A stretch of 64,000 nucleotides of DNA from Alloascoidea hylecoeti (GCA_001600815.1 BCKZ01000003.1:500581-564580); one strand, 5' to 3'. Positions 6,880 to 37,755 are shown, counted from the stretch's first letter. A program made the numbers and translations. The notes: generated by a model not told the origin, from the letters alone.

Positions 6880-7450
6880 TACTGTTACTATTTACCATAT
6901 CCTATTAACGATCACTTTGCCTGCTGCACAGGAATGGTCTAATTTAATGTATTTTAGAAATATCTCCTGGTGAATTATAGGTGAAGTTCGGTAGAACTTT
7001 ACTTAATAATAATAGCTACTTTTGATAATAACTACTTCCACTAAACTTCCTATAAGTATAATAGTTCTTTCGTTAGAACTTACTACACATTAAGTAGTTA
7101 TATAATTAATCAACTAGTTAGAAACAATATAAAAGGAGAACAAAATCTACTTTATAGGTTTTGTTCTTTAGTGAATTACTTTTATATCTTTTTTAAAAAG
7201 ACTAACTCTAACATTACACCTGGTCACATAATGATCTACAAATATCTATGGTTATAACTTATTATGGGAAACTAAAACTATCTTTAATCTGAATTTGAAC
7301 TAATTTATAAGTATAAAATTCTAGCAAAAGAACTCGTCTATTATGTTTAAGTATTAAGAATTTTCTATAAAATTTGTCAATGTATATTAACATTATATGT
7401 TTATAACACGGAATCTAGTTGAATTTTGAAACTCTTGGACTACGTATCTT
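6880..7450 (-). mobile_element. Decayed Ty1/copia integrase-region fragment (copy 1)
   Basis: Shares the core TTTAATCTGAATTTGAAC...AAGTATAAAA with the copies at 22.5 and 29.3 kb; minus strand encodes IFVDHY, resembling the copia integrase F[IV]DD[YF]SR motif. Lower boundary uncertain. Confidence 0.6.
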
Positions 7451-8853
7451 TGGCTCGCACCTAGGGTGACACCTACATTGTGATCACTATAGGTATAAAT
7501 GAATAATATATCAATAGTTTTGTTATTATCAACCTAGCAATTAGGTGGGGTATCTTTTCAGCTGCAAATGATGAATCCTATCAAAATTATATCATACAGC
7601 TGCAGATAAGATAAAAATCTGATATTTATAGGGTCAAACTTTCAAGCTATTATGTGTAAATATATTACTTGTAGGGTTACATTGCAGGAGTTATCAATAA
7701 TGAGCTTGATACAGAACAGATACGTATGCAACCGTGAGTGATTAGAGGAAAAAAGAGCTCGAGTGAGAATGATAAATCTCCGGGCCGAGTTAGTATTATT
7801 ATAGCTGAGAATGAACAAAAAAGGTTCGGAACTGTTTTAAGATCAAAGTATGACAGGCAAAGTTGCTGCCCAAAAGATATGTTCTCTTACATTGAGGGAA
7901 ACTTACATACAAGTACGAAGCATCATAAGGTGAATATTTTTCATTTTCCGATGCCTTACACTTTGAGGCTCATGGTTGGGTTGATTGCCTCAGATTTCTT
8001 CCACTAAAGCCGTGCTTGTGTTTATGATTAGTAATTCTACGAAACAGAGGGTAAGAAGTAGGTTCACCATTAATACAATAAGATCTAGATGGAATGAGCA
8101 ATTATACCCAATTCTGCAGTCTAATTAAATCACTCTATGATAATAGAAACATTTTCCAATTCTCTGAGGGCCTTGAGGGCGAGACATACATAAGAATGAA
8201 TATTATATAAGTCTGCATCACGTGCCAATGATATTCGAACAATAAATTATAATTGGAATTAATTCAGACAAGTTTCGATAACATGGGGATTATACATATT
8301 CATAAAAATAGATGTCTACATTTTCAAGGTTAATACAGCTGACTCATGTACAAACACACATGTTAGCATTTCCTAAATTGATTAATTAAACTCCAAATAT
8401 GATCAAAAAGTTCAAAAATGATGAACAATTGTACAATAATAATTTAATTTAATTGTTTTAGATTTATAAAAATTTATAAAATTTATAAAATATGTTTAAA
8501 TTAAACAAATAAGAATAATCATATATATGGTATATATAATAAAAATTTTTAAAGAAAAATAGTATAAATAATAAATAAGTAAAAAAGTTATAAAAAATTA
8601 TAAATATAAATATCAGATATAAAATTATTTTATACATTTAAGAACCTAAGCTTTAAAACAATATATGTTTTTTTATTTATTTATTTTTTAATAAAAACAA
8701 TATTAATGATTTGAAGAAATAAAGAAAGAAGGAAGGAAGGAAGGAAAAGGGCAGATAATAATAATTTCAATTTTTCTAACAAAAAAAGCAAAAAGTTCAT
8801 TTGAAAAGTTCATTAGTTAATTAGTTAAATTATCAAATAACAAATTTCAATTT

Positions 8854-11595
8854 TCATATTTTATTATCTTGATCATAAGGAATTTCATCTTCAATTTCAT
8901 TCTTATGATCATTTTTAATTTCAATTTCATTTTCATCATCTTCATTGATATTTTCAATTTCTTCATCAATATCAGCATCTTTTGCATAAATTGAAATCTT
9001 ACTACTAAAAATTCTATTTAAATTTCCAGATCTTCCAGTTAAATTTCTAATTGTAATTGCATTTTTTAAACCATCATCATCATATAAATATTGTAATTCT
9101 GAATTTTCATCATCAACATGATGAATTTTATACATTAAAATTAAATTATCTGTATTTAATTTCAAATAAATTTTTTTACAAATATCGTTTAATGAACAAT
9201 TTAAATTTTCTCTAAATGCAATTATTATATCTGAATAATGAACTTTTACTTTCATTAATGATTGTTTATTATTTTTTAATGATTTTGCTTGTGATTGTGA
9301 TTGTGATTGTGATTGTGATGATGATTGTGATGATGATTGATTATTTATTAAATTTATACTTGTTTTTGTATTTAATGTAGGAGTTGGATTTGATTTTGTT
9401 CTAATTTTTGTCTTTGGTGATGCATTAATTGATATATTTGAATGAGAATTTGATCTAAATTTAAATCCAGAATTCATTGATTTTGGTGATGATAAATCAT
9501 CAATATTATTCATTCCAATTCCAATTCCAATTCCATTTGATAAAATATTTGGATTGTTTATTGGAGAATAAGTATCACTTATTGGACTTTCATGTAATGA
9601 ATGATTATTTGTTAAATTTGTATGATTTGATTCAATTGAAGTACTTGAACTATTTGTTGATTTTATTGGAGATTTTATAAAAATATCAGTAACATTTGAT
9701 GAATTTTCAGATTTAAAACCAATTGATGATGATGATGTTGATCTTTGTTTATTAGTAGAACCACCTGGAGTTGTTGCTGTATATTCAATATCACCATCAT
9801 GTGGTTCAAACCATAATTTAACAACATCTGATTGACTTATATGTGATGGAGCTTGAATTAATTTTTTAATATAAATATCTAAATCAATTCTTCTTTGTGT
9901 TGCAATATTTTCATTAAAACTTGTACATGGAGGAGGTATATTTGGTATAATTCTTTCATCATTATCATTATCATTATCATTTATATTGTTGTTGTTATTA
10001 TTTGATTTTATTCTTTTAATTGATTCATTTGGAAATTTTTCATATAAAGAAATTTGTAAATTATAAAAATCTTGATAATATCTCCATAATTCTCTAATAA
10101 TATTATTTGACATTAAAATTTTTAAAAAATACCAATATCTTCCTCTACTAAATGAGCAAGATTCAACAGTTGCTGATAAAATTCTTGGTTCAGACCAAAC
10201 TTGTGATAATCTTAAATTTTTATAAATAATTTCAGTTAAACTATCAACACTTAATCTTGTTTTCCTTCTTTGTTCATATTCATCTTCATTTTCTTCAGAT
10301 GATGATGATGAATCTTTTAATGGTTCTTCTCTACCTGTTGATGAAAAATTATAATCTTCTTGTGTGTTGATATTAAGATTAAGATTAAGATCTTTTAAAG
10401 ATAGATTAGGTTGAGGTTCAACCTCAATATTTTCATCATCAACATTATTTGTTTCACCATCATTTAATGATTTTTGATTTTGATTTTGATTTTGATTTTG
10501 ATTTTGATTTTGATTTTGATTTTGATTTTGATTTTGATGGTTTTGAGACTGATTTTGATTTTGTGGTTGATCAAAAACATCTAAAGATTGTTCCATTTCA
10601 ATTTCTTTTTTCCAACTATCCAAATCCGGTATATTACTTTTTTTAATAAATTTAATTTCATTTTCTTTTGAAACCAATAATTTATTAGTTAAATCAAATA
10701 ATTGTATATAACTAACAGGTATAAAACCTGGACCACCTAATCTTCCAACAGGTTTTGCTAAAAACCATTCATAATTAACATGAGCACAAATAGTTATATG
10801 TTCACCAGGTTTTGCAGATAATTCACCGGGTTGTTCGGAAATAAATTGATATTTAACAATACCTATAACAACTACTTTATTTTTAGATGAAGAAATTGAG
10901 GTTTGAGTTGATGATAAAGATTGTGTGTTATGATGTATTTGATTAAAAGTTGAAGAGTGATGAGAAATTGAATCACTAGAAGTAAGAGTTGATTGATCTG
11001 GAACAACAGTTGTTTGGGTAGTCGTAGTTTGAGTACTATAACGAGCATTAATATTATAATCATCCAATTGTACATTAATATTATTCATAATAATATTTTT
11101 ATTATTAATTTTATCATCTGAATCATAATTATTTGGTTGAGCTATTGAAGTTGAAACACTAGAATTTGAATCACTTTTTATCGACAGCGGGGTTATATTT
11201 AATTGTGTTGTTATTGAAGAAGAAGAATTTGAAGTTGATAAAGCATTATTCATTCGATTATTTTTGGATAGAACTTCAAAGCAGTTAACAGGAACTTGGC
11301 CGGTCAAGCCTAGCTCGGGATTCGCAACGATATACCAATCATTATCATCTTCCTGGTCGATGACATGGAAGAAGTCGCCTTTCTTGAACGATAATTGGTT
11401 TGGGAGGGAGGTCGAACGATCGGTTACAGCGCGGATGATTAATTTTGGGACTTGCAGGGCGATCTGGCTTTGTTGGTGGGCGTAGATTGGATTTGAGGAG
11501 GAGGTGGTCGGGGTTCGGGGAGCAGAAGCGACAGACACAGCACCGGGAGAATTATGAAGCGGAGATTGCTTCTTCGACATCCGAAAATGGACCAT
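8854..11595 (-). CDS. BEM1: Bem1-like polarity scaffold, paralog A (SH3a-SH3b-PX-PB1)
   Basis: SH3a LSFKKGDFFHV...WY..ANP..G.VP; SH3b ICAHVNYEWFLAKPVGRLGGPGFIPVSY; PX ELWRYYQDFYNLQISL; PB1 MKVKVHY; long N/Q/S low-complexity inserts. Confidence 0.9.
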   Translation of the reverse strand: MVHFRMSKKQSPLHNSPGAVSVASAPRTPTTSSSNPIYAHQQSQIALQVPKLIIRAVTDRSTSLPNQLSFKKGDFFHVIDQEDDNDWYIVANPELGLTGQVPVNCFEVLSKNNRMNNALSTSNSSSSITTQLNITPLSIKSDSNSSVSTSIAQPNNYDSDDKINNKNIIMNNINVQLDDYNINARYSTQTTTTQTTVVPDQSTLTSSDSISHHSSTFNQIHHNTQSLSSTQTSISSSKNKVVVIGIVKYQFISEQPGELSAKPGEHITICAHVNYEWFLAKPVGRLGGPGFIPVSYIQLFDLTNKLLVSKENEIKFIKKSNIPDLDSWKKEIEMEQSLDVFDQPQNQNQSQNHQNQNQNQNQNQNQNQNQNQNQKSLNDGETNNVDDENIEVEPQPNLSLKDLNLNLNINTQEDYNFSSTGREEPLKDSSSSSEENEDEYEQRRKTRLSVDSLTEIIYKNLRLSQVWSEPRILSATVESCSFSRGRYWYFLKILMSNNIIRELWRYYQDFYNLQISLYEKFPNESIKRIKSNNNNNNINDNDNDNDERIIPNIPPPCTSFNENIATQRRIDLDIYIKKLIQAPSHISQSDVVKLWFEPHDGDIEYTATTPGGSTNKQRSTSSSSIGFKSENSSNVTDIFIKSPIKSTNSSSTSIESNHTNLTNNHSLHESPISDTYSPINNPNILSNGIGIGIGMNNIDDLSSPKSMNSGFKFRSNSHSNISINASPKTKIRTKSNPTPTLNTKTSINLINNQSSSQSSSQSQSQSQSQAKSLKNNKQSLMKVKVHYSDIIIAFRENLNCSLNDICKKIYLKLNTDNLILMYKIHHVDDENSELQYLYDDDGLKNAITIRNLTGRSGNLNRIFSSKISIYAKDADIDEEIENINEDDENEIEIKNDHKNEIEDEIPYDQDNKI
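10475..10538. repeat. (TGATTT)n coding microsatellite giving a QN dipeptide tract in BEM1-A
   Basis: About ten hexamer units; translates to QNQNQN on the minus strand. Confidence 0.9.
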
Positions 11596-11784
11596 TTGAC
11601 CACTCTGTATTTATCGGGAGACTTGGAAAGAAAGAAATCAAATTAAAAATGTTCAGACTGGAGAAAAAAGGGTTTAAAATTTAAGAAACTAACCTAAAAA
11701 AGAAAATTAAAAATAAAAAGAATGGGAAGGTCAGACACTATGCACGCGGCCCGAAGAGGACACTGCATGTGGATGATATATGTA

Positions 11785-13886
11785 TTACGTAAGGTCGCGG
11801 ACAATCCCGGCCAGCCGCTTGTAGTCCTGCAGCAGTGCAGCCACGTCCCCAAGCGTCAGCTGACTCACATCCTCACAACCCTCAAACCGCTCGATCGGCA
11901 TTTTGGCAGGCCTGCGCGGTGCGGTCTGCAGCGAGCGTGTTCTTGTTTGCGACTGGGTCCGGCTGCGGGTTCGCGAGTTCGTGAACACGCTCAGAAAGCC
12001 ACTGCCGTTTGTGCTGGAGCTCGATAGCGGCAGGTCATTACTGCTGCCATTGTTCCCCAACGCCGCGTGCAACGGGTCACTCAACCCACCTGTGCCACTA
12101 GTGTTCCCACCGGCACTAGCTCCAACCCCTTCCGTCTCCGTCTCCGATTCCGCCTCGAGCTCCGAAAGTGATTGCTGTGAAAACGATGCATTCCGCGACG
12201 AATGTGAATGGAATCCATTACCCGCTGATGACACCGATGTTGAGGGGGTCGGAATTGGTGGCTTCAAGTTAGAGTTGCTCCGATTACGTGTGGAAATTGA
12301 TAAGATGTTTTGTAATGAATTGATAGACGAAGAGCGTGATCGATTTCTTTCATTCGATAATACCGAATCATTTGAATTGTTTGACCTTAAACTTCGAATT
12401 ATTCCTAGATTTGGTATGCGGTTTAATGGATTAAGACTTTCTGATTGTGATGATGATGAGCTTGGTGATGTAGGTAATGATTCATTGACTCCAACAATCT
12501 TTTTAACTTCTGAAAGCGTTTTTGGATAATTCACGCTTGTTGATTGTTGTTGAGCATTTGAATTTGCATTTGAATTTGAATTTGAATTTGAATTTGTTAA
12601 TCTTCCAAATAATTTATTGAATGATTCGACGGTATTTCCAATAGCACGTAATCCTTGATCTGCTGATGCTGCTGCTGTTAATGCTAATTCTGTCGGATGT
12701 AATAAATTAAATGTTTTGGTAAAATCTGTCGATGAATTGATTCTTTTATTCTTAATGAAAGATTCAGGCCCTTGATTTGGTTTTTCAATAGGTACTGGTA
12801 ATAATTTCTTTAATGGTTCTTTAACAAGTAATAATTCTCCATATTTATCATCTTCTTCATTATATTCAATACCTAAAGATTTTAAAGTAATTGATTCTAA
12901 AAATGAACAAACTGCTTCATAATTTGTTAAAACAAATAAATGTTCTCCATTTAAACTTGATTCTTTTCTATATCTTTTAATAAATAAAAAATTTAACCAT
13001 AAGTTTGGTATATCAAAATAAATAAAACAAAAGATTAAAACTGGTAAAATTAAATCTGCACTTGCATCTTTAATACCTAATTTATTAAAAACATCTTCAA
13101 TTATTTGTTTATGAGCAAGTAATAATAATTCTAATTTTTCTAATGGATTTTTAAAATCATTTATCTTTTTTAATGTTTCACTTGAATTTTTTAAATTTTT
13201 TAAAATTATTTCATCATTTAATTCATTAACTTCCAATTGTTTTAATGAAATTTTTAATTTTTTTAAAATTTGAATTTTATTTGTTAATAAATTATTTAAA
13301 ATTAAATCATTACCTAAATTTGGTTTAAAAATTTTATTATATGATTTAAAACAAACTTGTTTTTCTGAAATTTCATCATATATAATTATTTTCATTTTTA
13401 ATTCATTTTTTTCTCTTTTTTTTAATTTAATTTCTTCTTGTGACATTAATTGTTGTGTATGAGTTTTTTGAAATGTACCATAAACAAATCTTTGATTTCT
13501 TTCATGAAATGTTTTATAAAATCTTTGATATAATATAACTATATCTTCTGGCATTAATGGTTTTTCATATCTAGGTTCTTGTAAAGAAACATAAAATCTA
13601 TCAACACCATATTAATATAATTAATTCATATTAAATATCAATAAAAAAATACTTACCGCTCAACCAATGTCTGTAACTCAGGTGGTAAAGTATCCCCTTT
13701 CTCCTTTAAATGTTTCTCCAAATATACCTTTTCATCAAACACATCTTCATCAGTCCCATCCATAATTCCATCATTTATCTTTTTTGGTGTTTGAGTTATT
13801 GCTTGTTGTTGATCTGGCATATATGATTCCTTTGCTGCCTCATCAGCCCACGGTCTTTCTGGATTAATGGGTGGCGTATGGAACAT
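11785..13886 (-). CDS. MUK1: VPS9-domain Rab5-family GEF Muk1; two exons (13886-13657, 13597-11785)
   Basis: Intron 13598-13656 (GTAAGT...TAG) joins ORF 13653-13886 in frame to give LPPELQTLVERFYVSLQEPRYEKPL; N-terminal FHTPPINP, VPS9 core SADLILPVLIF and FVLTNYEAVCSF, C-terminal LTLGDVAALLQDYK all match the Muk1 pattern. Confidence 0.88.
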
Positions 13887-14098
13887 CCAAAAACTTAGTA
13901 TTGTGTAACTAAAGCGGTGGGAAATGCCAAATTGAATTAAGCCATGTATGTACTAAACATCTGTGCTGGAATTTACCCAGATCCTGCGTAATCTTTATTT
14001 AAATATTTATGATTATCGGGTTTTCTAGAAAACTCCATCATTTTTAATTATAAACGGTACTTTTTACTGACATTTTTATGATAAAATGTTGATACAAC

Positions 14099-15040
14099 AT
14101 GTATTTACAACATGGATTAAAAAGACCTGCTGATTATATAGAAGGTGCAACATTTAAAAAACGATTAGTTGATTCTTTTAATCATTTATCATTATCTGAA
14201 TCCAATTTGAAAAATAAGCAACAAAATCAAAATTCAAATGAAATCAACAATGTTAATGAAAATGAAAATGAAATTATTGATTATATGGATATAAATGATT
14301 CAAATACTGTTTTTATACCATCAATAGATGATTTTTTAAAAGATGAATCAGATTCAGAATCAGAAAAGAAAAATCTTCAATTACAATCATTAAACAAAAA
14401 TGATAATGATAATTTAACACTTAATATTTTAGATAATTTTATATTATTAAAACCAATTGATTTATTAAATAAAAAATCATTAATTAAACCAACAAAAGAA
14501 AACCTACGAAGAAAAAAATTTAAAAAATCAAAATCATCACATAATAGTATTTTAAATAAATTATCAAGTTCAAGTCCAAGTACTGATAATTCTGATTATG
14601 ATAATGAAAGTGATTATAGTTATGACGATTATGGACAATATTATTATGATGAATATATTAGACAAAATTGGTCAATGATAATTTATAAAGATCCTAAAGA
14701 AGTAATATGGGACATTATTATGAATTGGTTAATTAATACAAATAATATAAATAATTATGATGAAAATAATATTCATAATTATAAAATTAATGAAATTAAT
14801 GATGATGATGATGATGATTATTCAACAAATGATATGGATATTGATATGAATATAGATGTTGATATGGATATTGATATTGAATCAAATTCAAATCCCATTA
14901 TTGAAGAACCTATTGATGATCAAGAACAAAGCACAAATTTTGATTATAATCAAAATCAATTACAAAATAATTTATATATTAATGATGTTTCAAATGTTGT
15001 GGAGATTAATGATGGTGATGAAGAAATGGTTTTGGATTAA
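14099..15040 (+). CDS. Uncharacterised acidic protein, probable YPL071C homolog
   Basis: 313-aa ORF; blocks KKRLVDSFNHLSL, SMIIYKDPKEVIWDIIMNWL and DMDIDMNIDVDMD resemble S. cerevisiae YPL071C as recalled; divergent from MUK1 (YPL070W) as in S. cerevisiae. Confidence 0.7.
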   Translation: MYLQHGLKRPADYIEGATFKKRLVDSFNHLSLSESNLKNKQQNQNSNEINNVNENENEIIDYMDINDSNTVFIPSIDDFLKDESDSESEKKNLQLQSLNKNDNDNLTLNILDNFILLKPIDLLNKKSLIKPTKENLRRKKFKKSKSSHNSILNKLSSSSPSTDNSDYDNESDYSYDDYGQYYYDEYIRQNWSMIIYKDPKEVIWDIIMNWLINTNNINNYDENNIHNYKINEINDDDDDDYSTNDMDIDMNIDVDMDIDIESNSNPIIEEPIDDQEQSTNFDYNQNQLQNNLYINDVSNVVEINDGDEEMVLD

Positions 15041-15169
15041 TATAATGTACTGTAGACAATAATTGATTTTATAGACATAATAATATTTATTTACTTATAT
15101 ATACCTATTATATATAATCACTAGAGATGGTTTCATAACTTAGCTGAAGTCTACATTATTTTATGATCA

Positions 15170-16690
15170 ATATTGCACTGTAGGTACAGTTAAGAGTAAA
15201 AACAACAAGTGGATATACCATAAAATGGTCCACAAATTTCAAAGTCACTGCTCTCTGTAAATACAGATACATATTCTTCTAGATTGAGTAGAAAATAAAT
15301 ATCAATATCCATATTTTACTAGAATATTAAAGTTTTTAGTCCGGTAAGGTTATGTTAGCAAACTGTAACCCATATATTTGCCAAGAACAGTTGTGTTTAA
15401 ATAAATATTGAAGCGATGAACTCACTAGACACTACAGAAGGAATCAAGTCACATAGATGGGAGAGAAAGGTAGTTCAATAGTCTCACCTATTCCATACTA
15501 TAAACAAATCATATTAATATCATCCAATTTTATAGATATCGATAATTCTTAAAGCTCAAACGTAACAAACCAGTTCAAATTCAGATTAAATATAATAGTT
15601 TCTGTTTCCATATATAATCATAGATAACTGATATAGTTCAATGAGATGGTAAACTCAACTCAAAATTAAAAAAGTTAAGGGTTTGTTATCCAATTCTTCA
15701 ATGATGCTAAAAAACAGTTAAAAATGTTATGATTATAAATTGGATACTGTTTAATTTATCATCATTATTTGAAAGATAGGCATCATTGACCAATACCATC
15801 ATGTAAAACAAAAAATCAAGCTAATGCTAGCAACAAGTAACCTTCCAAGAAACACTGGGCACACGCATTTTACTACAGTTTTTGCGAAAGCGAAGTCGTG
15901 GGAATGGTAGAGAATTAAATAACAATATGGCCGGGTAATGTTTAATGATATGCACGAGTCCCAATTTAATCGTTGATTTGATAACAACAAAAAAATCACA
16001 TTAACTAATATAAATTATACTGAATACGAGTCTGAGCGTTATACCAATGTCAAAAGAATAATAAGATATTCTACTTAATTATAATGTTTAAATATTGCTT
16101 ATAGCTCTATTATAAACATGAGTATTAAAGGATCATCTTGTGTTTCTGGTAATAGAGAACGAAGTGGAAAGGAATATCTTTGTACCAAAATTAAATGTTA
16201 AAAGCTTATTTATGTTTATGGATACCATCCCACCAGATTTGACTTTAAAAATGGTTGGATCAATTCCCTAATCGATGTTTATGTTTATGTATGAACATTG
16301 CAGGTAAGGACCATTATGGATGAATCAATGAACCTAAATGTTTGAAAGAACTCAATAATGTTTATATTAAATAATGCTCTAAAAAGCAAAACTTGGTATT
16401 TATTCGGACGATGCAATTTTTCTTTACAACCATGATAAAGATGTTGAAAAATGAAAGTAAATACTTTTGGAATTCACTATAAAATGGGTAAGTGATACCA
16501 TTGAAAAGAATCAATTGGAACTATTAGGTTTAACTTGGATATAAAATAATAATATGAGTACATTCTTGGAAATAAATTTAATATTTACAAAAATCTATAA
16601 AAAGCCATAATATTATTAAAGATAGAAAAATAAGAAAATCTACTTCACCTCATATTCCCAACGATTACATTGATAATCAGCGGATTTCTT
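15170..16690 (+). mobile_element. Decayed, internally deleted Ty1/copia pol (PR-IN-RT order; copy 2)
   Basis: Motifs in order with frameshifts and stops: PQISKSLLSVN (~15230-15262, post-protease), YIIID..YSSMRW.TQLK (~15610-15665, integrase), LMLATSNLP/KHWAHAFYYS (~15820-15880), LGIYSDDAIF (RT YxDD, 16401-16412), ELLGL and RKIRKSTSPHIPNDYID (16624-16674; cf. Ty1 RKLSAPGQPGLYID). IN before RT is the copia arrangement. Confidence 0.8.
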
Positions 16691-17584
16691 GTTGATACAT
16701 ATGGTGGGCGTCACACGACTTGTCGCACTTTAGGAAAATCAAAAATATTTTCAATACCTCTTTCAAGAAGTCTCACCACCATACCAAAACTACTTCATTT
16801 ATATTTTAATGATGACAGAAGATAGATAAATGATAAAAGAAACTTCTGTTTTTGTTAGAATTAATTTTGGACTACTCCGTCATTGTGATGAGCTGTAAAA
16901 TCTTCCAATCAAAAGTTTTAAAATATGTATAAATTACCGTATATGAATGTATGCATGCATTATGCATCATATATACTTCCAGATAGCGTATTTTCCAAAG
17001 TTGCATGCATACTACGCCCAAATTTCAAAAAAAAAAAAAGTGCGACAAGTAGTGAGACGCCAACCGTGTATAGCAGCAGTAGATGTGTATTAAATAATTA
17101 TAAAGTTTATATATTTTAAAACAAATATACGAGATATCTACTATAAGGCTTATACCCGTACATATGGCTCAAGATGAACTAGGGGTATACGACATTTATT
17201 AGTGTCGTATTTCAACGTTAACATGGCTTTACTACATGACCTTATTTGTGGGTTCTCAGTGTTAATAAACGTTACTTACGCAGCTGTTGATGGAATTTAT
17301 AAAAATCCATCTATTCACTCACATTATATTTAATTGGAAAGTTTTACTATGCATACTCCAGTTCTACATATGCATGTGGGTAAGAATATAAAAAGAGTAA
17401 AATATTAGAGATATAAAAAGTAAATAATGTACAATAATTATGAATTAACAGTTATATAAAATAACATTAATATTCGCAATTACTGAGTTCAAATTCAAGC
17501 TCACAATCTAAGGTTAAAATTTTTGAAATAAGTTGTGTTTTCTTTTTTGATATTTTTGTGTTGTCATTTGTATTTCATTTGTGC

Positions 17585-17585
<1 letters not shown>

Positions 17586-17620
<35 letters not shown>
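17586..17620. repeat. (TTTCGT)n hexamer microsatellite just downstream of the GATA-like gene
   Basis: About six units read directly. Confidence 0.9.
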
Positions 17621-17682
17621 CTTATAATATAACTGAATAGCTAAATATTGTTGAAAAATATAAGAATATAGTATTGCCCATG

Positions 17683-18660
17683 TTAATTTTTGAGAGTTGA
17701 AATACGATATTCACGTAATTCCAATAATGCTGTCGCCGCATTGAGCTCCTGCTCCATGAACCTTTCCTCCATAACTCCCAAAAAAATTTTATCGGTAGAC
17801 TCTTCCTCTGATAACTCTACCTCCGTTAACTCCTCGTTCTTGGGCTCTTCCTCCGTTGACTCTTTCACCTCAGACGCTTCCTCCCTAGGATGAAATTCCA
17901 AAACGTTATATTTTTCTGCATGTTTCATTTTTCTTACTCTCTGCGTATTGTTTCTTTCCTTCCAAGAAAAGAATTCGTCGGTCCTTTGGCCTGACTTGAA
18001 AAACTTATTACATCTGCCCCAGTATAAACCACAAGAGTTGCAGACACTTCCATAAGCTTGAATATTACGACCTTGTATTTTTGTCTTTCCTTTTTTAGTG
18101 TGGCAATAGCTGCAAGTTTTCATATTCCTCTCAGCTGATGTTTCAATTATACCAGTGGAGCTAGTATTAGCACATGTAGGAGAGTTATTATCCTCCAACT
18201 TAGCAGACTTTCTCTTTTTCTTTCTCTTAAGTTTTTCTATATTGAAATCTGACTGTAGTGTTCTTGAAGTGCTTCTCCTCGATTTTCTATCAACTATTTC
18301 AGTTGGTGATATTGTTTTTGGTTCAAAATATTTTATTCGATTAACATTTAAATTATCTGAGTTTTGTGATAAATTTGATTGTGTGGGAACATCCTTTTTT
18401 ATGAGATCAAGGTATTTAGGCTTAGAATATTTAAAAGATACCATACAAGTTGAGGGTTTCTCTGCAAACTCCTCTTGAGTGTTTGTATTATTTCCACTAT
18501 TACTATTAATAGTAGAATTCACAAACCCAATCGAGGTCCTTACGGATCCATTGGATATAGGACTCATAAATTTTTCATTTTGATTGATAGTTTGCTGCTG
18601 GACTTCTGTCAGATCTCCGAATGGTAGTGATAAACGGGAATTCAACTCAAGGCAACTCAT
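17683..18660 (-). CDS. Divergent GATA-type zinc-finger protein (C-x2-C-x20-C-x2-C)
   Basis: CSYC-x20-CNSCGLYW; basic NLS-like KLKRKKKRK; acidic C-terminus ending AATALLEL. Lacks the usual TPxWR loop. Confidence 0.7.
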   Translation of the reverse strand: MSCLELNSRLSLPFGDLTEVQQQTINQNEKFMSPISNGSVRTSIGFVNSTINSNSGNNTNTQEEFAEKPSTCMVSFKYSKPKYLDLIKKDVPTQSNLSQNSDNLNVNRIKYFEPKTISPTEIVDRKSRRSTSRTLQSDFNIEKLKRKKKRKSAKLEDNNSPTCANTSSTGIIETSAERNMKTCSYCHTKKGKTKIQGRNIQAYGSVCNSCGLYWGRCNKFFKSGQRTDEFFSWKERNNTQRVRKMKHAEKYNVLEFHPREEASEVKESTEEEPKNEELTEVELSEEESTDKIFLGVMEERFMEQELNAATALLELREYRISTLKN

Positions 18661-21600
18661 TCTTGCGATATATAATAACTGATTTTTTTGATTTGACTGT
18701 AAGCTAAAAATAAATAGAGATTTCAGAAGTGTGGTTAACAGTGTTTATCAAAATACAGGTAATAATAATAATATAAAAGATATAAGATCGTATCCTCTTC
18801 TAAAAAATATTTTATATTTTATTTTGCATTTTCCTTATTTGTCACACGCGTATAAAGTAAATGATATTAAGTTTATGTAGATGTCTCTTTTCGATCAATA
18901 TTTTTGGAACTCCAAACTTTAATCAGAGGAATGAATAAACTTGTCTACTATATGTATTGCAAAATTTGGAAAAATATTGTAGCTTCATTACTTTATTTTT
19001 ATCATGCACGTATGCATAATACTGAACCTACACAAAATTAAAAGCAACACAATATATATGGATTTTACATAGATTGCTATTATATAACCAAAATATGTAC
19101 CTATCCAATCATGTAGAGATAACTTTTCCATTACTTGCTCTAAGATTGCGATTTGGGTTTTGATGCTCGATTGCTTAATTGGATAACCTATGAAAACATG
19201 GATGCATGTGGTGAAATCGCAAGATTAGTTATTGCACCAATTACCATAATTAACAACAAAATGTAAAGCGCTCAGTACTAATGATTACCTTACACTATAG
19301 CCAAAGCGTTATATATAAAAATCAGAGTATGTATGAGACGAGGCATCCTGTTGTAATCAAGCGCTGTTTCAACTTCACTACTTCATGATTATTCACCAAT
19401 GTTACACATCATTATCCTTTTTAACTCTTTCATAACCAATATTATTTTCATGATTTTTTCAAATTTGTATAGATAATAGTAGCTTGCACTATTTTATAGT
19501 TGCATATTAGTACCGCACGCAAACTAGTGGAGATTAGAAATTAAATATTGTAGGCCATTTTGTATTTAAATATATTTTCTAGAATAGAAATAATTAAAAG
19601 ACGGATCTAATATTACTATATTTCCAAAAATAATTTTATCTTAGTGCACAACTTACAAGAGAAAAGATATATCAAACAAAGTATCATAGGTATTTTTTCC
19701 TGTAAATGTCCTTCTATAAAGTTTACATAAATCTTTGGTTGGGTAAGTAAATAGTACTCATGTAAATAATTAGTTTAATTTAGAGCTTTAATGGTCACCT
19801 GAAAATAGAAGGAACCATGCATGCTTAGTGGAGTTGAAAGAATATTCGGAGGCCAGGTAAAAAGATTTTGAAAAAATATATATGTAACCATGAGTAGGAA
19901 ATAAGAGGATGTCGCGCTATAGTATGAGGTTTTATTGGGATAAATATTCCCCTCTGCTCCATCTCTTTGAAAGTGAAGAGAAGGTGAATGTTTTGAAAAA
20001 TGCTTTCAAACTTCACCTCATCGAAGATTTGGCAATGTATTTCGGAAACAAAATAAACTTATGTAAGATAATGCATCTTTTCATATCTAACTCTATCATG
20101 TACTCGTAATTAAAAGAGGAAATAATTGAAGTGATGGAGTAGCTACATTTACTTAAGACCTGAGCCCAATTATGGTATGAGTTGCAAAAGAATTATTGTT
20201 AAAGATGAACCAGCCCTTATAATACTACAAGAAAGTAGGTAAATAATATATTAACTTGGAAAATATACTGTAAGATCTCCCAATAATATAGATCCATCTT
20301 TTTATAATATTATCTCGAACACCGAAGGTCTAGCTAGGTGGTGTGCCATCAAGAAATGGGGGTGGCTATATTGGAGGGTTGAACCACGAATATTTAATAT
20401 TCGGTATATAAAATAACTAGAAAGGAAAGATCTGGATCTTTTATTTTTCCCTAAAAAGTATGTTCTTACTTTGTTAACATATGTGTAATCTGTGATTAAA
20501 TTAATACCTGAGAGGTGGTACACTATTTTACCAGTAGCGGTACAGATGTTCATTATTTCTTGCTCTAGAGGTAAAAGCAAACCACTTTATGAAAGAACTG
20601 GATTTTCTTAACCATTAATATTCTTGCATTGTTTGTTTTCAGTCTTCATATTTCACTATAATTAAATCAGTATCTTTTATTTCTGTAGGGTGTTTTTTGC
20701 TAATAGAAATGTGAATAAGATCGAAATATAGTCGATTAACTAAATAAAAGATAGAAACAACTACTACGCTTATCATTTACCAGTTAAAATGTTATACCTA
20801 ATTATAATAATTTGTAACGAATTGAGATCTAACATACTTATATTGGACTTCAAAAACATTTATTCAAAGAAACCCAGTTCTTTTGAGTATTTAATCTTTG
20901 AATCGAAGTCCTCCATTTATTTGGAATTTTAATTTGGAGAGATATTCAAGTCGGTTGCTGTTTAGTTATCAGCATAATTGACTTCAAATCTCTTATCTTA
21001 GATGAATCAATATTAAATAATGCTTTTAATATCCATATACTCTATAGCTAGTGACAGAGAGTTTAATTAATATTAGACAGCAGTTTTATTTATAATTATA
21101 TTGCTTGTCTTTTCGAAGACCAAGCGATATCATTTCCAGTAGAAAATTTTCTTGATCATATATTATCCTCTGGTTCATCTGCTTATTAATTAACTTTTTG
21201 TTGTTAATTCTTGTTATGCTTTTAGCCCAAAAAATCAATTGATTTGATATATAGTTATTAATTATATAGCAAACATTACTGTACTTATTATGAAACTTAA
21301 TTCATCATCAGTTGTATTGATTTTATATTTGCAAATATGAACCATTTTCATCCAATAGGAAATCTCCCAATATAGTTATGCTATAGCAAATATATGTCGA
21401 TTCCCATAAACCTTATAACTAATAGAATTTTATATACTGACTCACACCCATGTTTCCTTAAGCTTCATAAATATATAAACTTATATGCTTATCCTGTGTA
21501 TATGAATCTCGGACGACGCTCGTGTAAGTTTGATATTGCTATTATATCTTCGCTTTTAAACGCAAAACCATTTTATCTCGACCGAATTCCTATGGTTCGG

Positions 21601-22294
21601 ACCATGACAGATCTGTCCAAATCACAACTTTGAAACCATCCGAAGACCCCAATTACTGTGATTTCTCCCGGGTTGAGGTTCTGAGCGGTGTGTATATCCT
21701 TCGAGGGACTCTTGTAAACATCATATCAATGGATTCAAGTACCAAGCTTTACAATGTTACACAGAGGAGTATTTCCCTATATCTATATCTACCATAGGTG
21801 GATTATGGTCAGCAAGTGTCAAACCTGTCTTTTAGACCTAGGTATACTTCTGGGCTTTCTTCCACGAATTTCGACACTCGGAATAGGGGGTATTTGACCA
21901 TTCTATCGCGTATAAATAATAATAAAACAATGACTACAGCGGACGCACTGAGTAATTCAGAATCCTCGGCTTGGAGAGCTAAAATTATTTTACATACTAT
22001 TCACTCGTATCTTATTGGATTCAATGAAGTTTCTCGGGGTTTACAGTTTTTGTAATTACAGTTACAAGAAATAAAAAAATGCAGGGACCTGTAGTAAAAC
22101 TTATAATTCCATTATGCATATGCATAATAAATGTTGGGGTCACCCTGCTTTTGCGTGTCAATTTAATCACAATCAATAACAATATATTCACTAAACCGAA
22201 TTCTCAAAAAGGGGAGATACCAAATCAGACTCTTAAAATTGGGAGATCAGGGGATCTTAAGAGTCGTGCGCCGCTACCAAATATTAGAGGAATT

Positions 22295-22710
22295 TTGTCT
22301 AGTGGATGATAGTTCCAAATAATGATGATAAATTAAATAACCAATTTGTAATCATAACATTTTTAACTGTTTTAGAATCCCTGAAGAATTGGATAACAGA
22401 CCATTAACTTTTTAGTTTTTGAGTTGAGTTTACCATCTCGTTGAACTAAACAATCATCTATGATTATATATGGAAGCAAAAACTATTATGTTTAATCTGA
22501 ATTTGAACTGGTCTAAGTATAAAACTTTAAAAAGAGACGTCATTTGTTACATTTGAGTTTCAAGAATTATCTATAAGATTAAATATTATCATAGTAGGGA
22601 GTAGGGAATAATTAATATTGGACTACCTTTCTCTCCCGTCTATATGACTTGAATTCTTCCGTTGTGCTTAGTGAGTTCCTTGGTTCAATTTATTATAAAC
22701 ACAAATGTGT
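22295..22710 (-). mobile_element. Decayed Ty1/copia integrase-region fragment (copy 3)
   Basis: Reverse complement aligns with 15395-15775 (e.g. GAGATGGTAAACTCAACTCAAAA, TGTTATCCAATTCTTCA, ACAGTTAAAAATGTTATGATTA); encodes YIIIDDC. Confidence 0.8.
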
Positions 22711-23433
22711 CAGGAATTGTTTTATTAGTCTAGAATCACTTATTTTTGGTTAGATAAAGCGTGGAGTCCATGAACAACAAAAAAAAAAGGAAAGTGAGAA
22801 TCCTTTAATAGTCTTTATTCTCAATGTTTCAAAAGGATGTTTACTAGAAAATGAGGTTCCTATATTTCATTTTGAACAGGAGTTGTGGTAATGCACAGAA
22901 TAAATAGTTTCCTTAATATTTATCTAAGGGTTTACCTATAGGGCCTTATTGACATAGGTCTAGTTATGCCAGTGGTAGTAAAATTGTTAATAATAATAAT
23001 AAAAATAGTTCGTTTTAGCCAATCGTGTTAATTCTAGATTTCTACTTGCCAAAAGCTACTTTTCCTATTTCATGAAATGATATCAATTTCATTTCATCTA
23101 TTTTCAAACATATAGAAGGTTATATTTATATGATAGTAGTAATAAACAATAAACGCAATAATAAAATACATTCTTCTTCAATTGATAATTATAAATCAAT
23201 CAAAAAATAGAATTCCAAAAATTCAAGTAAATAAAAAAAATAATATATTAATATTAATAAAATGTAATGAATAAGTAGAAATGAATATTTACAAATATTT
23301 AGGAAGAAAAGAAAAAGAAAAATAAATGAAAATTAAAAAAAGAAAAGGAAAAAGAAAAGGAAAAGGAAAAGGAAAAGCAAAAATAAAGGAAAAAAAAAAA
23401 CCCAATCAATTACAAGTGAAAAAATAAATCAAA

Positions 23434-25176
23434 TTAACATTTAGTTCTAATATAAAATACTACTTTTCTTTTAAATTTTAAAATTTGAAATAACGTATCA
23501 TCATCATCAATTATAACTATCTCATCATCTTCATCATCTTCATCTTCATCCTTAGCGCTATTACTGCTATCAATTGAATTAAATGATTTATCAGCTTTAT
23601 AACTACCAGGTAAATAAGTCAATGACACAAGGTTAGGATCTAATGATAATTTATCTGACACTTTTGAAATTAATGAGGATAATTGAATATTTGATGGGAT
23701 AATTAATGCAAATAAATCAGTTTCATAGAAAAATTTAATTTTAATGTTATTAACTTCTCCATTTCCATTTGCAATTGCATTTGAATTTAGTTGTATTTGT
23801 GTTTGTGTTTCTGATGAATCATTTATTGGACTAATTAAATCGGATTCTGAAGTATTTAATGTATCGAATGTATTTGTGGTATCTGTTCTTGTATGAGTAT
23901 TATCAACTTGGGATTTATCATTAGGGTTTGATAATCTTCCAATATTAAAATTAATACCATCATCACCAGACCCTGAATCCGTATCAGAACCATCATATTG
24001 ATATCTATTATGATCATCAGTCTTTTGAATATCAATTTCAATTTCATCATTAATAGGAAAATCTTCTTCTTCTTCATCAATCAGTTTAATTTCTTCCCAT
24101 CCAGGTCTAGTTGGTAAACGATCAGGATATTTTCCAATTTCTTCTAAATCACCATCCCAACAATTAAAAAAATTTAAAACTAATCTATTTTTTAAGATTT
24201 TTTCAACTTTTAAATTTATAATATTTGAAACATAAGTATTAAAATCTTGCATTCTTGAAATTGTTATACTATCATTTATATAAGCAACTGGACCAGGTAT
24301 AAAAGGTAAAATTCTTGGAGGACCTTTTGGTGATCCTGCTTCTTGTGGGAAAGTGTCTAATAATTTAACTTGAAAATCATAAAAATCTTGATATAATCGA
24401 CATAATTTTCTAAAATGACCATTTGATGTTTGTATAAGGACTAAAAACCAAAAAGTATCATTTGAACAGTAATATGATGGAACTGATGCTGATATAATTG
24501 GATCATTTAATGATAGGAAACGTGCTTGAGAAGTTGGAGAAGTAATTCCAGTCAAATTATTATTATTGTTACTACTATTACGATTATTAGTAGTTGAAGT
24601 AGTGAAAATTGAATTCGAAGCTGTTGAAGTAGTTTGAAGAGAAGAAGTTGAGTTATAAGACCCTCTAATATTAGTAGTAGTATTATATAATTTTGATTTT
24701 GGCTTTGGTTGTAAAGATTGAGTTTTTGAAGTAGGAAGTAAAGCAATTGAACTTGCTTGATATTTTCTATTTCTTGATTTCCATTCTTCGACAGTTGGTA
24801 TTTCAAAAGTCTTTACAGCTTCTTCAATGTTTTTTAAAACTTGACCAGTCTTTAAGTTTGTAAGTTTAACATAAGAAACAGGAACTAAACCAGGACCACC
24901 TAATCTTTCAATTGGTTTTGCGATAAACCAATCAAAATTATGATGCGCACATATTATTAAATTTTCATTTGGATGAACAGCTAACTCATCAGGTTTTTCC
25001 GGTACAAAATCATATAAGACGTGTGCATGTAAAGCACCAGATCTACCCCCGGGAGCAACACTGGCACCGGCTCCAAAGCCGGAAATAGATGGTGAAGATG
25101 GAGTTGGGGGAGGTTTACCCGTGCTGTTTGGAGATGAATGTCTTTTTTCTCGTAGCGAACGTCGGAAGCTTTTCAT
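23434..25176 (-). CDS. BEM1: Bem1-like polarity scaffold, paralog B (basic N-terminus-SH3b-CI-PX-PB1; no SH3a)
   Basis: MKSFRRSLREK N-terminus; SH3b VLYDFVPEKPDEL...ICAHHNFDWFIAKPIERLGGPGLVPVSYV; CI IPTVEEWKSRNRKYQASSIAL; PX LCRLYQDFYDFQVKLLDTFPQEAG..RILPFIPGPV; PB1 IKIKFFYETDLFAL. Confidence 0.92.
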   Translation of the reverse strand: MKSFRRSLREKRHSSPNSTGKPPPTPSSPSISGFGAGASVAPGGRSGALHAHVLYDFVPEKPDELAVHPNENLIICAHHNFDWFIAKPIERLGGPGLVPVSYVKLTNLKTGQVLKNIEEAVKTFEIPTVEEWKSRNRKYQASSIALLPTSKTQSLQPKPKSKLYNTTTNIRGSYNSTSSLQTTSTASNSIFTTSTTNNRNSSNNNNNLTGITSPTSQARFLSLNDPIISASVPSYYCSNDTFWFLVLIQTSNGHFRKLCRLYQDFYDFQVKLLDTFPQEAGSPKGPPRILPFIPGPVAYINDSITISRMQDFNTYVSNIINLKVEKILKNRLVLNFFNCWDGDLEEIGKYPDRLPTRPGWEEIKLIDEEEEDFPINDEIEIDIQKTDDHNRYQYDGSDTDSGSGDDGINFNIGRLSNPNDKSQVDNTHTRTDTTNTFDTLNTSESDLISPINDSSETQTQIQLNSNAIANGNGEVNNIKIKFFYETDLFALIIPSNIQLSSLISKVSDKLSLDPNLVSLTYLPGSYKADKSFNSIDSSNSAKDEDEDDEDDEIVIIDDDDTLFQILKFKRKVVFYIRTKC

Positions 25177-25305
25177 TTGAGACCAATCTAGTTGAATATA
25201 ATAATTTTTGTTATTTGCTTGGAGGTTAAAATAGAGTGGGTGTATGGATGATGAACCATGTTGAACAACTGATAAAAACTCTCCCTTATCCCATCATTTC
25301 TATAA

Positions 25306-25632
25306 ATGGCCCCTTCCATCCCTCCAGCTAAAACAGCCCCCAAAAGAAAACGAGGCCGTCCGAGAACTCAAAAACAATCTTCTATCACCCAAAAGCATCA
25401 TGAACTACAATTAAAGGCACGATCTCTTAGACCTTCCTTCAGTGCGGCCCCTACTTTAAAACATAGCACACCAGAAGAAGATATGCTGAAACCACCAAAA
25501 AGAAATAGTATCAAATTTATTAACGTTGAGGAGTTCTCTTTGCCTTCTGTTTCTAAAGAGGTTCCGTGGCCCGATGATAAGAAAAAAACGCGTGAAACCG
25601 AAAAATGGCAAGGAGTGTCTTTTTTAATATAA
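25306..25632 (+). CDS. Small basic AT-hook protein (putative)
   Basis: 108-aa ORF, ATG preceded by AAA, AT-hook KRKRGRPR, divergent from BEM1-B with 129 bp between starts. Confidence 0.45.
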   Translation: MAPSIPPAKTAPKRKRGRPRTQKQSSITQKHHELQLKARSLRPSFSAAPTLKHSTPEEDMLKPPKRNSIKFINVEEFSLPSVSKEVPWPDDKKKTRETEKWQGVSFLI

Positions 25633-26657
25633 TAGACAAGTAAATATGATCACTCGCTGATTCACCAGTAATTGTTTTTATTTCAATGAAAGTGTTCAAA
25701 AACAAACTGGTGGTTGGATCTATGTTGTTATCGCACGGTTAGGAGATGGTATTGATCAAACTTATATTTTTCAATTTATCGAAAGTAAACGATATAGAGG
25801 GAGCTTTATATTTATATGTATTTCTGTATACATTTGTTCTTTGTTCTTTGTTCTTTTGTTTTCCTGTTTTGTTTCCTTTTTTCAACATTTTAAATATGTT
25901 GTTTCCATTAAATGTTTTCTTTGTTTTCAAAGAAGTTTGTTTTGCATTTGATATATCAATTATATCATTATCATGAATTTATTCCATGTAAATACTTTGC
26001 ATGTATAAATATAGTTCATATTCATTTTATTATTTTATTTTATCAGTTGCAATTGTGTTCTTAAAATTACAGTTAAGGTTATCCCAAACGGGAGTTGGAG
26101 TATCAACCTTCTATTCATTATGAAATTATTACAGGTATTAATCACTTAACTTTATAACTTTCGGTCGCAAATACTCTATTATAAATACCCCCTCATTTCT
26201 TTAACTCTTTCTTTACTCTAACATATACTATTATACCTTTGATATTTATAACACTATATTAATGAATTCTACTCATAATCTCCTTGTGTGTTTTACGTTC
26301 ACAAATACTTCTCTAGATCAGATTACATGCCATTGAAACCGTAAACATTTATATGTATGCATATACTTATTATCCTTTGAATATTATTATAAAATCTGAA
26401 ACCTCTGATAATATTTTAGGAGTACGTCTTTATTTTTTGACTGTTTAGTCACTTCTATATCTCCTTGTTTTCTTAAAACTATTCAGCCTCTTAAGCTTTC
26501 TAGTTTTATAAACAACTGCATAAATGCATGCTAATGTTATCAAGGCTAATCTGTTGTGGTAGATTTAGACAATTTATCATCTTAATATCAATATATTTCT
26601 AACTTTGTTTTAGAGAGAAGTACAATTTAGAAATGTTTATTATGTATATCATGTTAT

Positions 26658-29084: not shown

Positions 29085-30110
29085 GGTCAAATTTGATTTA
29101 GCTAATAATGCCATTGATATAGCTATGTTGGAATGACCCTTTTCAATTATGCCGTTAGCTTTGGGATGATATGGTGCTGTTTGTCTAGTCTTAATTCCAT
29201 ATTTTCAAATAATGATTATAAATTATCGGATAACAGACCCTTAGATTTTTAGTATTTGAGTCGAGCTTACCATCTTATTGAACTAAGCAATCATAAATGA
29301 TTATATATATGGGAACAAAAACTATGTTTAATCTGAATTTGAACCGATTTAAGTATAAAATTACAAAGAAAAGAAGTCGTTTGTTACATTCGAGCTTTAA
29401 TAATAATCTATAAAATTGGTTAATATTAACATTATTTGTTTATAGTAGGAAACTTGGTTGAAACTATTGGAAAACATTTCTTTCCCATTGATCTATAAGA
29501 TTTGAATTCTTCTGTTCTGTTTAGCGGTTCCATCGTCTCAATATTTATTCTAATCACAACTGTCCTTAGAACTTAGACAATATATGGCTGATGATTTACT
29601 ATTATAATCCTTACGGACTGAACATATTAACATTTTAGCGAAATACGAGTATCGATTTTCTAATCAATCTAGAGAAGTATGTACTTTACATGTGTTTACC
29701 GAGAGCAGTGACTTTGCAATTGGAGGAACATTCTTCATATCGGTATTAAACCATGCTGCTTACAAACTATCGTTACAAAAGAAGCTAATTATGGCTTACG
29801 GTTCAAAAAGAGCTGCCAGACGACCAAAAATTGTTACATTTCAACCACGAATGGCATAACCATCTATAGCAACAAATATAAATTATTGGAGTAGTATCAA
29901 TAAATTCTATTCAATCTCATAATTCTGACAATATATGTTCAACATATATATTTTTCAAAGATTGTTGTGTGGTAAAAGTTCTTCTACGATTATTTGGTGT
30001 ATTGAACTTACTAGCTTGAAGCTTAAGCTTCCAACATACATCTCTTTTGGTATCTCTAGAGAATCCCGTGTAAATTTTAGTATCTTTTCCCCCTTAGAAG
30101 TCAGAATTCC
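29085..30110 (-). mobile_element. Decayed Ty1/copia gag-PR-IN fragment (copy 4)
   Basis: Minus strand: FLV-(2-nt gap)-SGSS protease-site relic (~29810-29832), NVPPIAKSLLSVN (~29694-29732), and integrase KYGIKTRQTAPYHPKANGIIEKGHSNI...LLAKSNL (~29085-29205); homologous to the 15-kb and 32-kb copies. Confidence 0.82.
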
Positions 30111-37600: not shown

Positions 37601-37755
37601 TAAGAAGAAGTGAATATATTGCTTCAAGTCGTGTTGATAAATTAACAAGTTTAAAAGAAATGGCAAAAAATTGTATGATTTATGCGGGTATGGTTCAATA
37701 TAGAATGCCTAGAGAAACATATAGTATTTTGATTAGTTTAGAATCATCATTGTGA
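34663..37755 (+). CDS. NIC96: Nucleoporin Nic96; exons 34663-34946, 35035-35152, 35218-37755
   Basis: Introns GTATGT..TAG and GTAAGT..TAG rebuild DTKAHYLLAGSG and TDIDSYLRSKKEENIL; DPYKYALYKIIGRCEL, TVEDWLW, YAGMVQYRMPRETY. Confidence 0.95.

Follow-up and report, generated by a model that had tools for sequence, protein, structure and literature searches.

Two linked, diverged BEM1-family genes with complementary domain loss in Alloascoidea hylecoeti

The pair and its closest described counterparts

Yeast polarity has Bem1 as its central scaffold, and this protein serves as a model for the loss, bypass and rewiring of an essential-like hub in evolution; most work on it has used engineered alleles such as SH3a deletion, N253D or K482A. 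Here we describe a 64-kb stretch of DNA from Alloascoidea hylecoeti (hereafter, the window) that carries two intact open reading frames (ORFs) of the Bem1/Scd2 family, both on the minus strand, which we call paralogues A and B (Table 1). The domain functions with which they can be compared come from S. cerevisiae. According to the available part of PMC7409549, the SH3b domain binds PxxP motifs of Cla4, Ste20 and Boi1/2, the Cdc42-interaction segment (CI) that follows it binds Cdc42-GTP, and the PB1 domain binds the PB1 domain of Cdc24. The same source reports that W192K kills SH3b ligand binding and abolishes SH3b-dependent localisation, that K482A impairs Cdc24 binding, and that N253D, used as an allele defective in Cdc42-GTP binding, leaves Bem1 localising with normal dynamics. 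Growth is good with a Bem1 deleted for SH3a, and Bem1 can be replaced in full by an SH3b-PB1 fusion (PMC9713459, available part).

An earlier interpretation made from the sequence only (the sequence-only reading) took Bem1 to be normally single-copy, which needs qualification, since extra paralogues have been published: AgBem1-2 in A. gossypii and CaBem1-2 in C. albicans (Verschueren et al., 2015; PMC4466140). As far as the available part of that paper goes, each has one SH3 domain of the SH3b type, at residues 37-102 and 47-105, respectively, and the SH3 motif triad of AgBem1-2 (QDY/FLNV/LPC) deviates from SH3b. These proteins resemble B in their single SH3 near the N-terminus (residues 53-104 in B), and, as in the present pair, each gives its budding yeast a second member of the Bem1 family. 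However, their printed SH3 motifs are far more divergent than that of B, and a reciprocal loss in the main Bem1 is not described in the available part of PMC4466140. Within the literature searched on extra BEM1 copies, and within the portions of it that were available, paralogues were reported only in that paper (PMC6054225 scores only the presence or absence of Bem1), and no description of a linked BEM1 pair with reciprocal degeneration was found.

Single-SH3 proteins also occur among database relatives. Fifty of 301 fetched proteins had no strong SH3a match, and among 10 of these that were looked up, 3 had longer, two-SH3 cluster mates and 7 came from short contigs; most such entries are probably truncated gene calls. 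Within the SH3a-less set, a full canonical N-terminus leading straight to SH3b was found only in the annotated BEM1 of Saccharomycodes ludwigii (KAH3902197.1, P0201), Hanseniaspora osmophila Bud emergence protein 1 (OEJ83019.1, P0209) and an unnamed relative (P0222), each with one Pfam SH3 as against two in the S. cerevisiae control. The S. ludwigii and H. osmophila proteins are like B in having a canonical basic N-terminus, a linker, SH3b-CI, PX and PB1 without SH3a; together with P0222 they are unlike B in being sister to Saccharomycetaceae (support 98), whereas B falls in a basal polytomy, a placement from a quick tree with long branches. Since the single-SH3 S. ludwigii/H. osmophila group stands apart from B, SH3a has been lost at least two times in budding yeasts. 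No mention of its loss in S. ludwigii or H. osmophila was found in the literature searched.

Like S. cerevisiae Bem1 and S. pombe Scd2, both A and B have SH3b-CI, PX and PB1 in the same order, with the same fold and recognisable sequence, and A has SH3a as well. The locus differs from these systems in that there are two copies, B lacks SH3a, the CI of A carries D at the position of N253 (S. cerevisiae numbering is used throughout for key residues) and agrees with the family in 4 of 11 conserved columns, and A extends to 913 amino acids (aa) with low-complexity linkers. B thereby resembles the engineered, SH3a-deleted Bem1 and A the Cdc42-uncoupled N253D allele; those are laboratory constructs in a single-copy background, whereas here both states coexist as natural genes. 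The complementary domain loss proposed by the sequence-only reading is borne out by residue-level counts, A having an SH3a and a CI outside the family range, and B a canonical CI and no SH3a.

Domain content and residue-level conservation

Both ORFs lie exactly where the sequence-only reading had placed a minus-strand BEM1 pair about 12 kb apart, with 11.8 kb between the start codon of A and the stop of B. A window-wide comparison of the 105 stop-to-stop frames of at least 70 aa showed A and B to be the sole paralogous ORF pair, with 38% identity over SH3b-CI (E 2e-23), 31% over PX (E 2e-16), a weak match at the C-terminus and 27% over the whole length. All significant database matches of A or B were Bem1/Scd2 proteins, at ~25-45% identity, and the solved Bem1 SH3-CI and PX structures were the top matches of each, both by sequence and by fold.

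In contigs from three DNA runs of three studies (X1, X2 and X4), the stretches 23444-25929 or beyond, 9290-10463 and ~10570-12093 were covered with 0 other letters, and neither A nor B showed any difference, insertion or deletion inside it, leaving no within-species polymorphism as a measure of selection. Because these contigs match both genes exactly, the locus is not an assembly artefact. Hexanucleotide microsatellites at 10465-10558 and 9282-9345 encode poly-QN and poly-SQ tracts of A, and the contigs of all runs break there. At 29% G+C, the chance of a frame staying open is ~3e-34 for A (913 codons) and ~5e-22 for B (580 codons). Very long frames in AT-rich DNA, and folded domains that are kept while the linkers drift, argue in favour of function in both copies. 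In the metatranscriptome X8, only pieces of 27-35 bases matched, on low-complexity stretches, and these carry no information on expression.

Paralogue B is the more canonical in sequence. Alignment with the starts of other Bem1 proteins supports the basic N-terminus that had been claimed for it, and a 30-residue P/S/G-rich linker then leads to an SH3 domain that begins at about residue 49. Pfam finds this one SH3 (53-104) and a PX match at 256-338; the canonical CI segment, EEWKSRNRKYQASSIAL, occupies residues 130-146. The linker coincides with a G+C-rich patch at 25040-25120, which is the expected site of SH3a. The statement that B goes directly to SH3b at about residue 48, without SH3a, withstood every search made for the missing domain. 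A hidden Markov model (HMM) of Bem1 SH3a that was derived from the fetched relatives and applied to the window in all six frames found only the SH3a of A (71.5 bits) and 11-bit cross-matches to both SH3b domains; tblastn with the SH3a of A gave no match upstream of B; and no SH3-like minus-strand frame occurs in 25177-26657, the 1.5 kb upstream of B. An intron hiding SH3a is ruled out because the frame is unbroken from the canonical N-terminus into SH3b. AlphaFold2, run with a 58-row alignment, placed the domains of B at 48-143, 225-350 and 477-578, with a mean predicted local distance difference test (pLDDT) of 86-98 per 10-residue block save at 533-546. The PB1 of B scored 19.5 bits in Pfam (E 0.001), close to the 19.9 bits of S. 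cerevisiae Bem1, both below the cut-off of 23.6, and it matched 1ip9 at E 0.0065.

Paralogue A retains all four domains of the family. Pfam places its SH3 domains at 54-105 and 246-294 and its PX at 500-598, and AlphaFold2 predicts the four domains with pLDDT of 90-97 in most 10-residue blocks (~95 in both SH3), joined by long, disordered, N/Q/S-rich linkers; confidence is lower in an insert of the PX (~residues 530-550). At the C-terminus there is no Pfam PB1 match, but hhalign against the family profile gives 88% probability (E 3.1e-06), and pLDDT, at 92-96 for the greater part of the domain, drops to 59-79 past residue 850. The predicted complex of the A PB1 with the B PB1 scored 0.00, which lends no support to pairing of the two copies but does not speak against it. 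An SH3a whose ALYDY motif has become AVTDR had been claimed for A; residues 56-60 read AVTDR, and Pfam, HMM and fold all find the domain. That A lacks the typical basic N-terminus was correct in so far as it is less basic, but the N-terminal motif can still be recognised (MVHFRMSKKQ, against the family's M-x-K-x-F-[KR]-x-S-K). CI-like helices are predicted at 310-319 and 325-341, and the eroded segment after SH3b, DSWKKEIEMEQSL, corresponds to residues 326-338.

To compare the copies with the family, a column was called conserved if the same residue occurred in at least 80% of 150 relatives. Among the 23 such columns of SH3a, A keeps 18 (family 5th percentile 18, median 22), the domain being absent from B. 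For SH3b (29 columns), A keeps 22 and B 24, against a family minimum of 22; for PX (39 columns), 29 and 31, against 29; and for PB1 (7 columns), 4 and 6, against 5. Of the 11 columns of CI, B keeps 8, which is the family minimum, and A only 4, in agreement with the erosion of CI in A and its canonical state in B that the sequence-only reading had described. Both copies keep the equivalents of W192, P208, R316, R349, R369 and K482, each invariant in 150/150 relatives, so that the PB1 lysine predicted for both is present as K784 in A and K481 in B. Indeed, family-invariant functional residues are kept by both, except in the CI of A and at D488 of its PB1.

In the CI of A, Y249 is replaced by E and I254 by V (Y and I each in 150/150 relatives) and L256 by D (L in 148/150), and the position of N253, which is S, T or N in 150/150 relatives and D in 0/150, is D. 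By sequence comparison, this CI does not match the conserved Cdc42-GTP contact motif W-K ... Y-K-A-S-x-I-x-L-G despite its helices. The CI of B keeps the equivalents of Y249, I254 and L256 and has S at N253, as do 69/150 relatives; B also carries R at A247 and L at G257 (each 0/150). On the ligand face of the A SH3a, Y81T (1/150 relatives), Y83R (0/150) and Y126C (0/150) replace three aromatic residues, so that this domain has retained its fold but has a remodelled ligand face. The basic pocket of the A PX keeps R312, R316, K338, R349 and R369, and its PB1 has I at D488 (family D in 148/150). B has S at K338 (1/150 relatives) in its PX, where R316, R349 and R369 are kept. Both copies are unusually diverged throughout, and even the SH3a that A retains is itself rebuilt.

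Table 1. Coordinates of the BEM1-family genes, their domains and the gene between them (positions in the window)
Feature	Position	Strand	Basis or remark
B, 580-aa Bem1-family protein: basic N-terminus, SH3b-CI, PX and PB1, without SH3a	23434..25176	-	ORF, Pfam, AlphaFold2, PDB matches
B canonical basic N-terminus, MKSFRRSLREKRH...	25117..25176	-	Aligns with the N-termini of other Bem1 proteins
B SH3b-CI, residues 48-147, canonical	24736..25035	-	2rqv E 4.8e-32; pLDDT 94-98; SH3b 24/29, CI 8/11
B PX, residues 225-350	24127..24504	-	Pfam PX 2.5e-06; 2v6v template modelling (TM) score 0.84-0.86
B PB1, residues 475-578, K481 (= K482), acidic insertion 533-546 (low confidence)	23443..23754	-	Pfam, 1ip9
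A, 913-aa Bem1-family protein: SH3a, SH3b with degenerate CI, PX and PB1, long N/Q/S-rich linkers	8854..11595	-	ORF, Pfam, AlphaFold2, PDB matches
A SH3a, residues 50-112	11260..11448	-	pLDDT ~95; SH3a HMM 71.5 bits; 18/23 conserved columns
A SH3b and CI-like helices, residues 240-341	10573..10878	-	W192 and P208 equivalents kept; C-terminal half of CI degenerate
A PX, residues 470-610, N/D-rich insertion	9766..10188	-	Pfam PX 8.8e-09; 2v6v TM 0.80
A PB1, residues 778-880, K784 (= K482)	8956..9264	-	hhalign, AlphaFold2, NBR1 PB1 TM 0.80
VPS9-domain gene	11785..13554	-	Between the copies, 190 bp upstream of A; Pfam VPS9 2e-21

Origin of the pair and competing explanations

We favour, at a probability of roughly 0.55, an old local duplication of BEM1 with reciprocal module loss, which would have left B as a Cdc42-Cdc24-PAK scaffold pared to a minimal core and A as a diverged adaptor no longer coupled to Cdc42-GTP. 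Under this reading a single gene would have been duplicated at or near the ancestral BEM1 locus, after which both copies would have evolved 6-9 times faster than a typical Bem1, each losing a different module. A local, single-gene event is indicated because A and B are the sole paralogous ORF pair, lie on the same strand and share a host-like G+C content at third codon positions (GC3) of 0.11-0.12, in a window of ~29% G+C. The duplication was probably local, and to judge from the divergence between the two sequences it is old. Three other ideas were considered and rejected. A segmental duplication does not fit, the neighbours of A and B not being paralogous; a horizontal origin of one copy does not fit either, as both carry the host's extreme GC3; and a dispersed repeat of ~0.5 kb cannot be a remnant of the duplication, since its copies are far more alike than the genes and so arrived later. 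Four copies of this repeat lie within 23 kb (7150-7650, 15150-15800 in inverted orientation, 22250-22750 and 29150-29780), with several matched segments 80-92% alike and one copy ~1-1.5 kb downstream of each BEM1 gene; it may be a solo long terminal repeat or another relic of a mobile element.

Along the minus strand, B comes first and is followed by two ORFs, the VPS9-domain gene and A. The two ORFs are an acidic, N-rich one of 313 aa and one of 325 aa with a GATA-like zinc-finger motif, and the remainder of the interval is gene-poor. Just upstream of A, where the VPS9-domain gene has its 3' end, there is a G+C-rich patch at 11600-12100. Out of 80 metagenome loci, two yeast-like ones (L062 and L004) have BEM1 followed downstream by a VPS9-domain gene in the same orientation, and they also carry DER1, a neighbour of BEM1 in S. 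cerevisiae. It is possible that the VPS9-domain gene marks the ancestral BEM1 neighbourhood, and these two loci, which probably come from a single yeast group, weakly suggest that the pair sits in that neighbourhood, as expected of a local duplication.

Relatives were sought by word-indexed protein searches with A and with B, by a full HMMER scan in which B was compared with 1.84 billion representatives, and by a metagenome scan with the family alignment. The HMMER scan returned 743 matches at E <=0.001, the best 150 of which were at <=47% identity; the metagenome scan matched 449 stretches, including 330 relatives, the best 80 at 27-39% identity; and Protein Atlas look-ups with B and with P0291 gave ordinary Bem1 clusters only. 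The glucosidase II of the window is 47-53% identical, about equally, to all budding-yeast orders and Pezizomycotina, and because it is about equidistant from all those groups the host is assigned to an isolated budding-yeast lineage. Maximum-likelihood trees (LG+C20+F+G4; 54, 27 and 33 rows), all of them quick trees, placed B together with Babjeviella in a polytomy basal to the sequences of the CTG clade, Saccharomycetaceae and Phaffomycetales-type yeasts (Cyberlindnera, Wickerhamomyces), and A one node deeper (support for its exclusion 84-97). End branches were 2.2-2.9 for A and 1.7-2.0 for B against medians of 0.26-0.37, i.e., 6-9 times the family median. Since both branches are very long, the placement of A and B is unsafe.

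Several observations weigh against the interpretation that we favour. A and B are not sisters in any of the free trees, and the rare residues common to them number 5, no more than A has in common with unrelated long-branch sequences. The old local duplication claimed by the sequence-only reading is thus only partly sustained: deep divergence speaks for its age, but the free trees, which separate A from B, do not place it within this lineage, although a clade of A and B is not rejected by the approximately unbiased (AU) test (delta lnL 9.8, p 0.123). Neither the protein searches nor the metagenome scan found an orthologue or close relative of A or B. Naive Nei-Gojobori ratios of nonsynonymous to synonymous substitution (dN/dS) between A and B were 0.63 for SH3b-CI, 1.25 for PX and 1.07 for PB1, which give no sign of purifying selection; with GC3 at 0.11-0.12 and substitutions between the paralogues close to saturation, we discount them as uninformative. 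In several domains the conservation of A and B is at or below the family minimum, and a partial loss of function in either is possible. Finally, all the binding roles considered below are carried over from S. cerevisiae.

The main rival is an ancient paralogy, in which one copy, most likely B, would be orthologous to Bem1-2 of A. gossypii and C. albicans and the other would be the true BEM1 orthologue. The similar positions of the single SH3 (37-102 and 47-105 in AgBem1-2 and CaBem1-2, 53-104 in B; PMC4466140, available part) and the separation of A from B in every free tree speak for it. However, B keeps 24/29 SH3b columns and a canonical CI, whereas the printed Bem1-2 triads deviate from SH3b; the AU test leaves the A+B clade standing; and the basal placement of two such long branches may be long-branch attraction. 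On balance, we consider this unlikely. Somewhat less likely again is a reversal of roles, with the four-domain A as the principal Bem1 and B as an accessory or condition-specific short form. Only A has the complete family architecture, and the normal dynamics of the N253D allele (PMC7409549, available part) imply that a degenerate CI need not cripple Bem1; yet A has diverged further than B in each of the domains they share, its branch is the longer one, its PB1 carries I at D488 and escapes Pfam, and the architecture of B is sufficient in S. cerevisiae constructs and natural in the Saccharomycodes/Hanseniaspora group.

It is also improbable that one copy, more likely A, is a decaying, functionless duplicate and the complementary pattern a coincidence of erosion. 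The CI (4/11) and PB1 (4/7) of A do fall below the family minimum, and naive dN/dS is near 1 in PX and PB1, but the 913-codon frame of A has stayed open at 29% G+C, against odds of ~3e-34, despite the 27% identity of A and B; its four domains fold, mostly with pLDDT of at least 90, where its linkers do not; and it keeps the invariant W192, P208, R316, R349, R369 and K482 equivalents. As for a misassembly, frameshift or missed intron behind the missing SH3a of B or the odd CI of A, several other genes of the window, such as Nic96, do seem to begin in an upstream exon; this explanation is nevertheless already contradicted by the contigs of three DNA runs, in which both genes recur with 0 other letters and are free of insertions and deletions, by the continuity of the B frame from its canonical N-terminus into SH3b and by the lack of SH3a-like sequence near B in any frame, and its probability is negligible.

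Elsewhere in the window, the Nic96 gene (35218-37755, plus strand) has a frame that is open from 35218, with its first ATG at 36160 and a Pfam match that starts at profile position 113, and an aldose-1-epimerase gene (47768-48847, minus strand) has an open frame of 359 codons as against an ATG-initiated ORF of 162 aa; both look like genes that start in a short upstream exon and have 5' introns. An ORF of 1467 aa (42937-47340, plus strand) matches a short-chain dehydrogenase only at residues 30-209, the other ~1200 residues having no Pfam family. On the strand opposite to B, an ORF of 108 aa with an AT-hook-like KRKRGRPR motif (25306-25632, plus strand) starts 130 bp from the start codon of B, with which, if real, it would share a very short divergent promoter.

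Proposed division of roles and its meaning

If an old local duplication with reciprocal loss is correct, B would bind PAKs and Boi proteins at their PxxP motifs through SH3b, Cdc42-GTP through its intact CI, phosphoinositides through PX and the PB1 of Cdc24 through its PB1 lysine, and would thus be equipped with all the parts of a Cdc42-Cdc24-PAK positive-feedback complex. Going by the S. cerevisiae literature, B would hold everything known to be necessary for the core scaffold. A, by means of its SH3b, PX and PB1 lysine, would probably still bridge PAK/Boi-type ligands, the membrane and Cdc24. With a destroyed Cdc42-contact motif and a rebuilt ligand face on its SH3a, A would most likely serve as a Cdc42-GTP-independent adaptor with altered SH3a partners. 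From S. cerevisiae genetics, a division of labour between A and B may be expected; a split between growth modes, budding or hyphal growth versus mating, is speculation. A stronger form of this reading, which we regard as possible but doubtful, is duplication-degeneration-complementation, in which B would provide the Cdc42-GTP/Cdc24/PAK feedback and A a Cdc42-independent role that depends on the rebuilt SH3a (scaffolding of exocytosis, mating or cell fusion, for example); the two copies would be required together, and neither by itself would be equivalent to an ancestral Bem1.

Precedents are known for parts of this arrangement, namely the single-SH3 Bem1 and the extra Bem1 paralogues, and the annotated single-SH3 BEM1 of Saccharomycodes and Hanseniaspora indicates that budding yeasts have lost SH3a on more than one occasion. 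Two types of allele otherwise made by engineering, however, appear here side by side in one genome: a canonical B without SH3a and a four-domain A without the Cdc42-contact motif. Should one copy be silent, or a third, canonical BEM1 be present, the pair would be an ordinary diverged duplicate. If instead both genes are expressed and required, the pair would demonstrate that duplication can divide up a hub scaffold, and the Cdc42-coupled and Cdc42-uncoupled functions of Bem1 would be separable without mutagenesis. Were duplication-degeneration-complementation true, A. hylecoeti would offer a ready-made separation-of-function system for a scaffold that is hard to untangle in S. cerevisiae.

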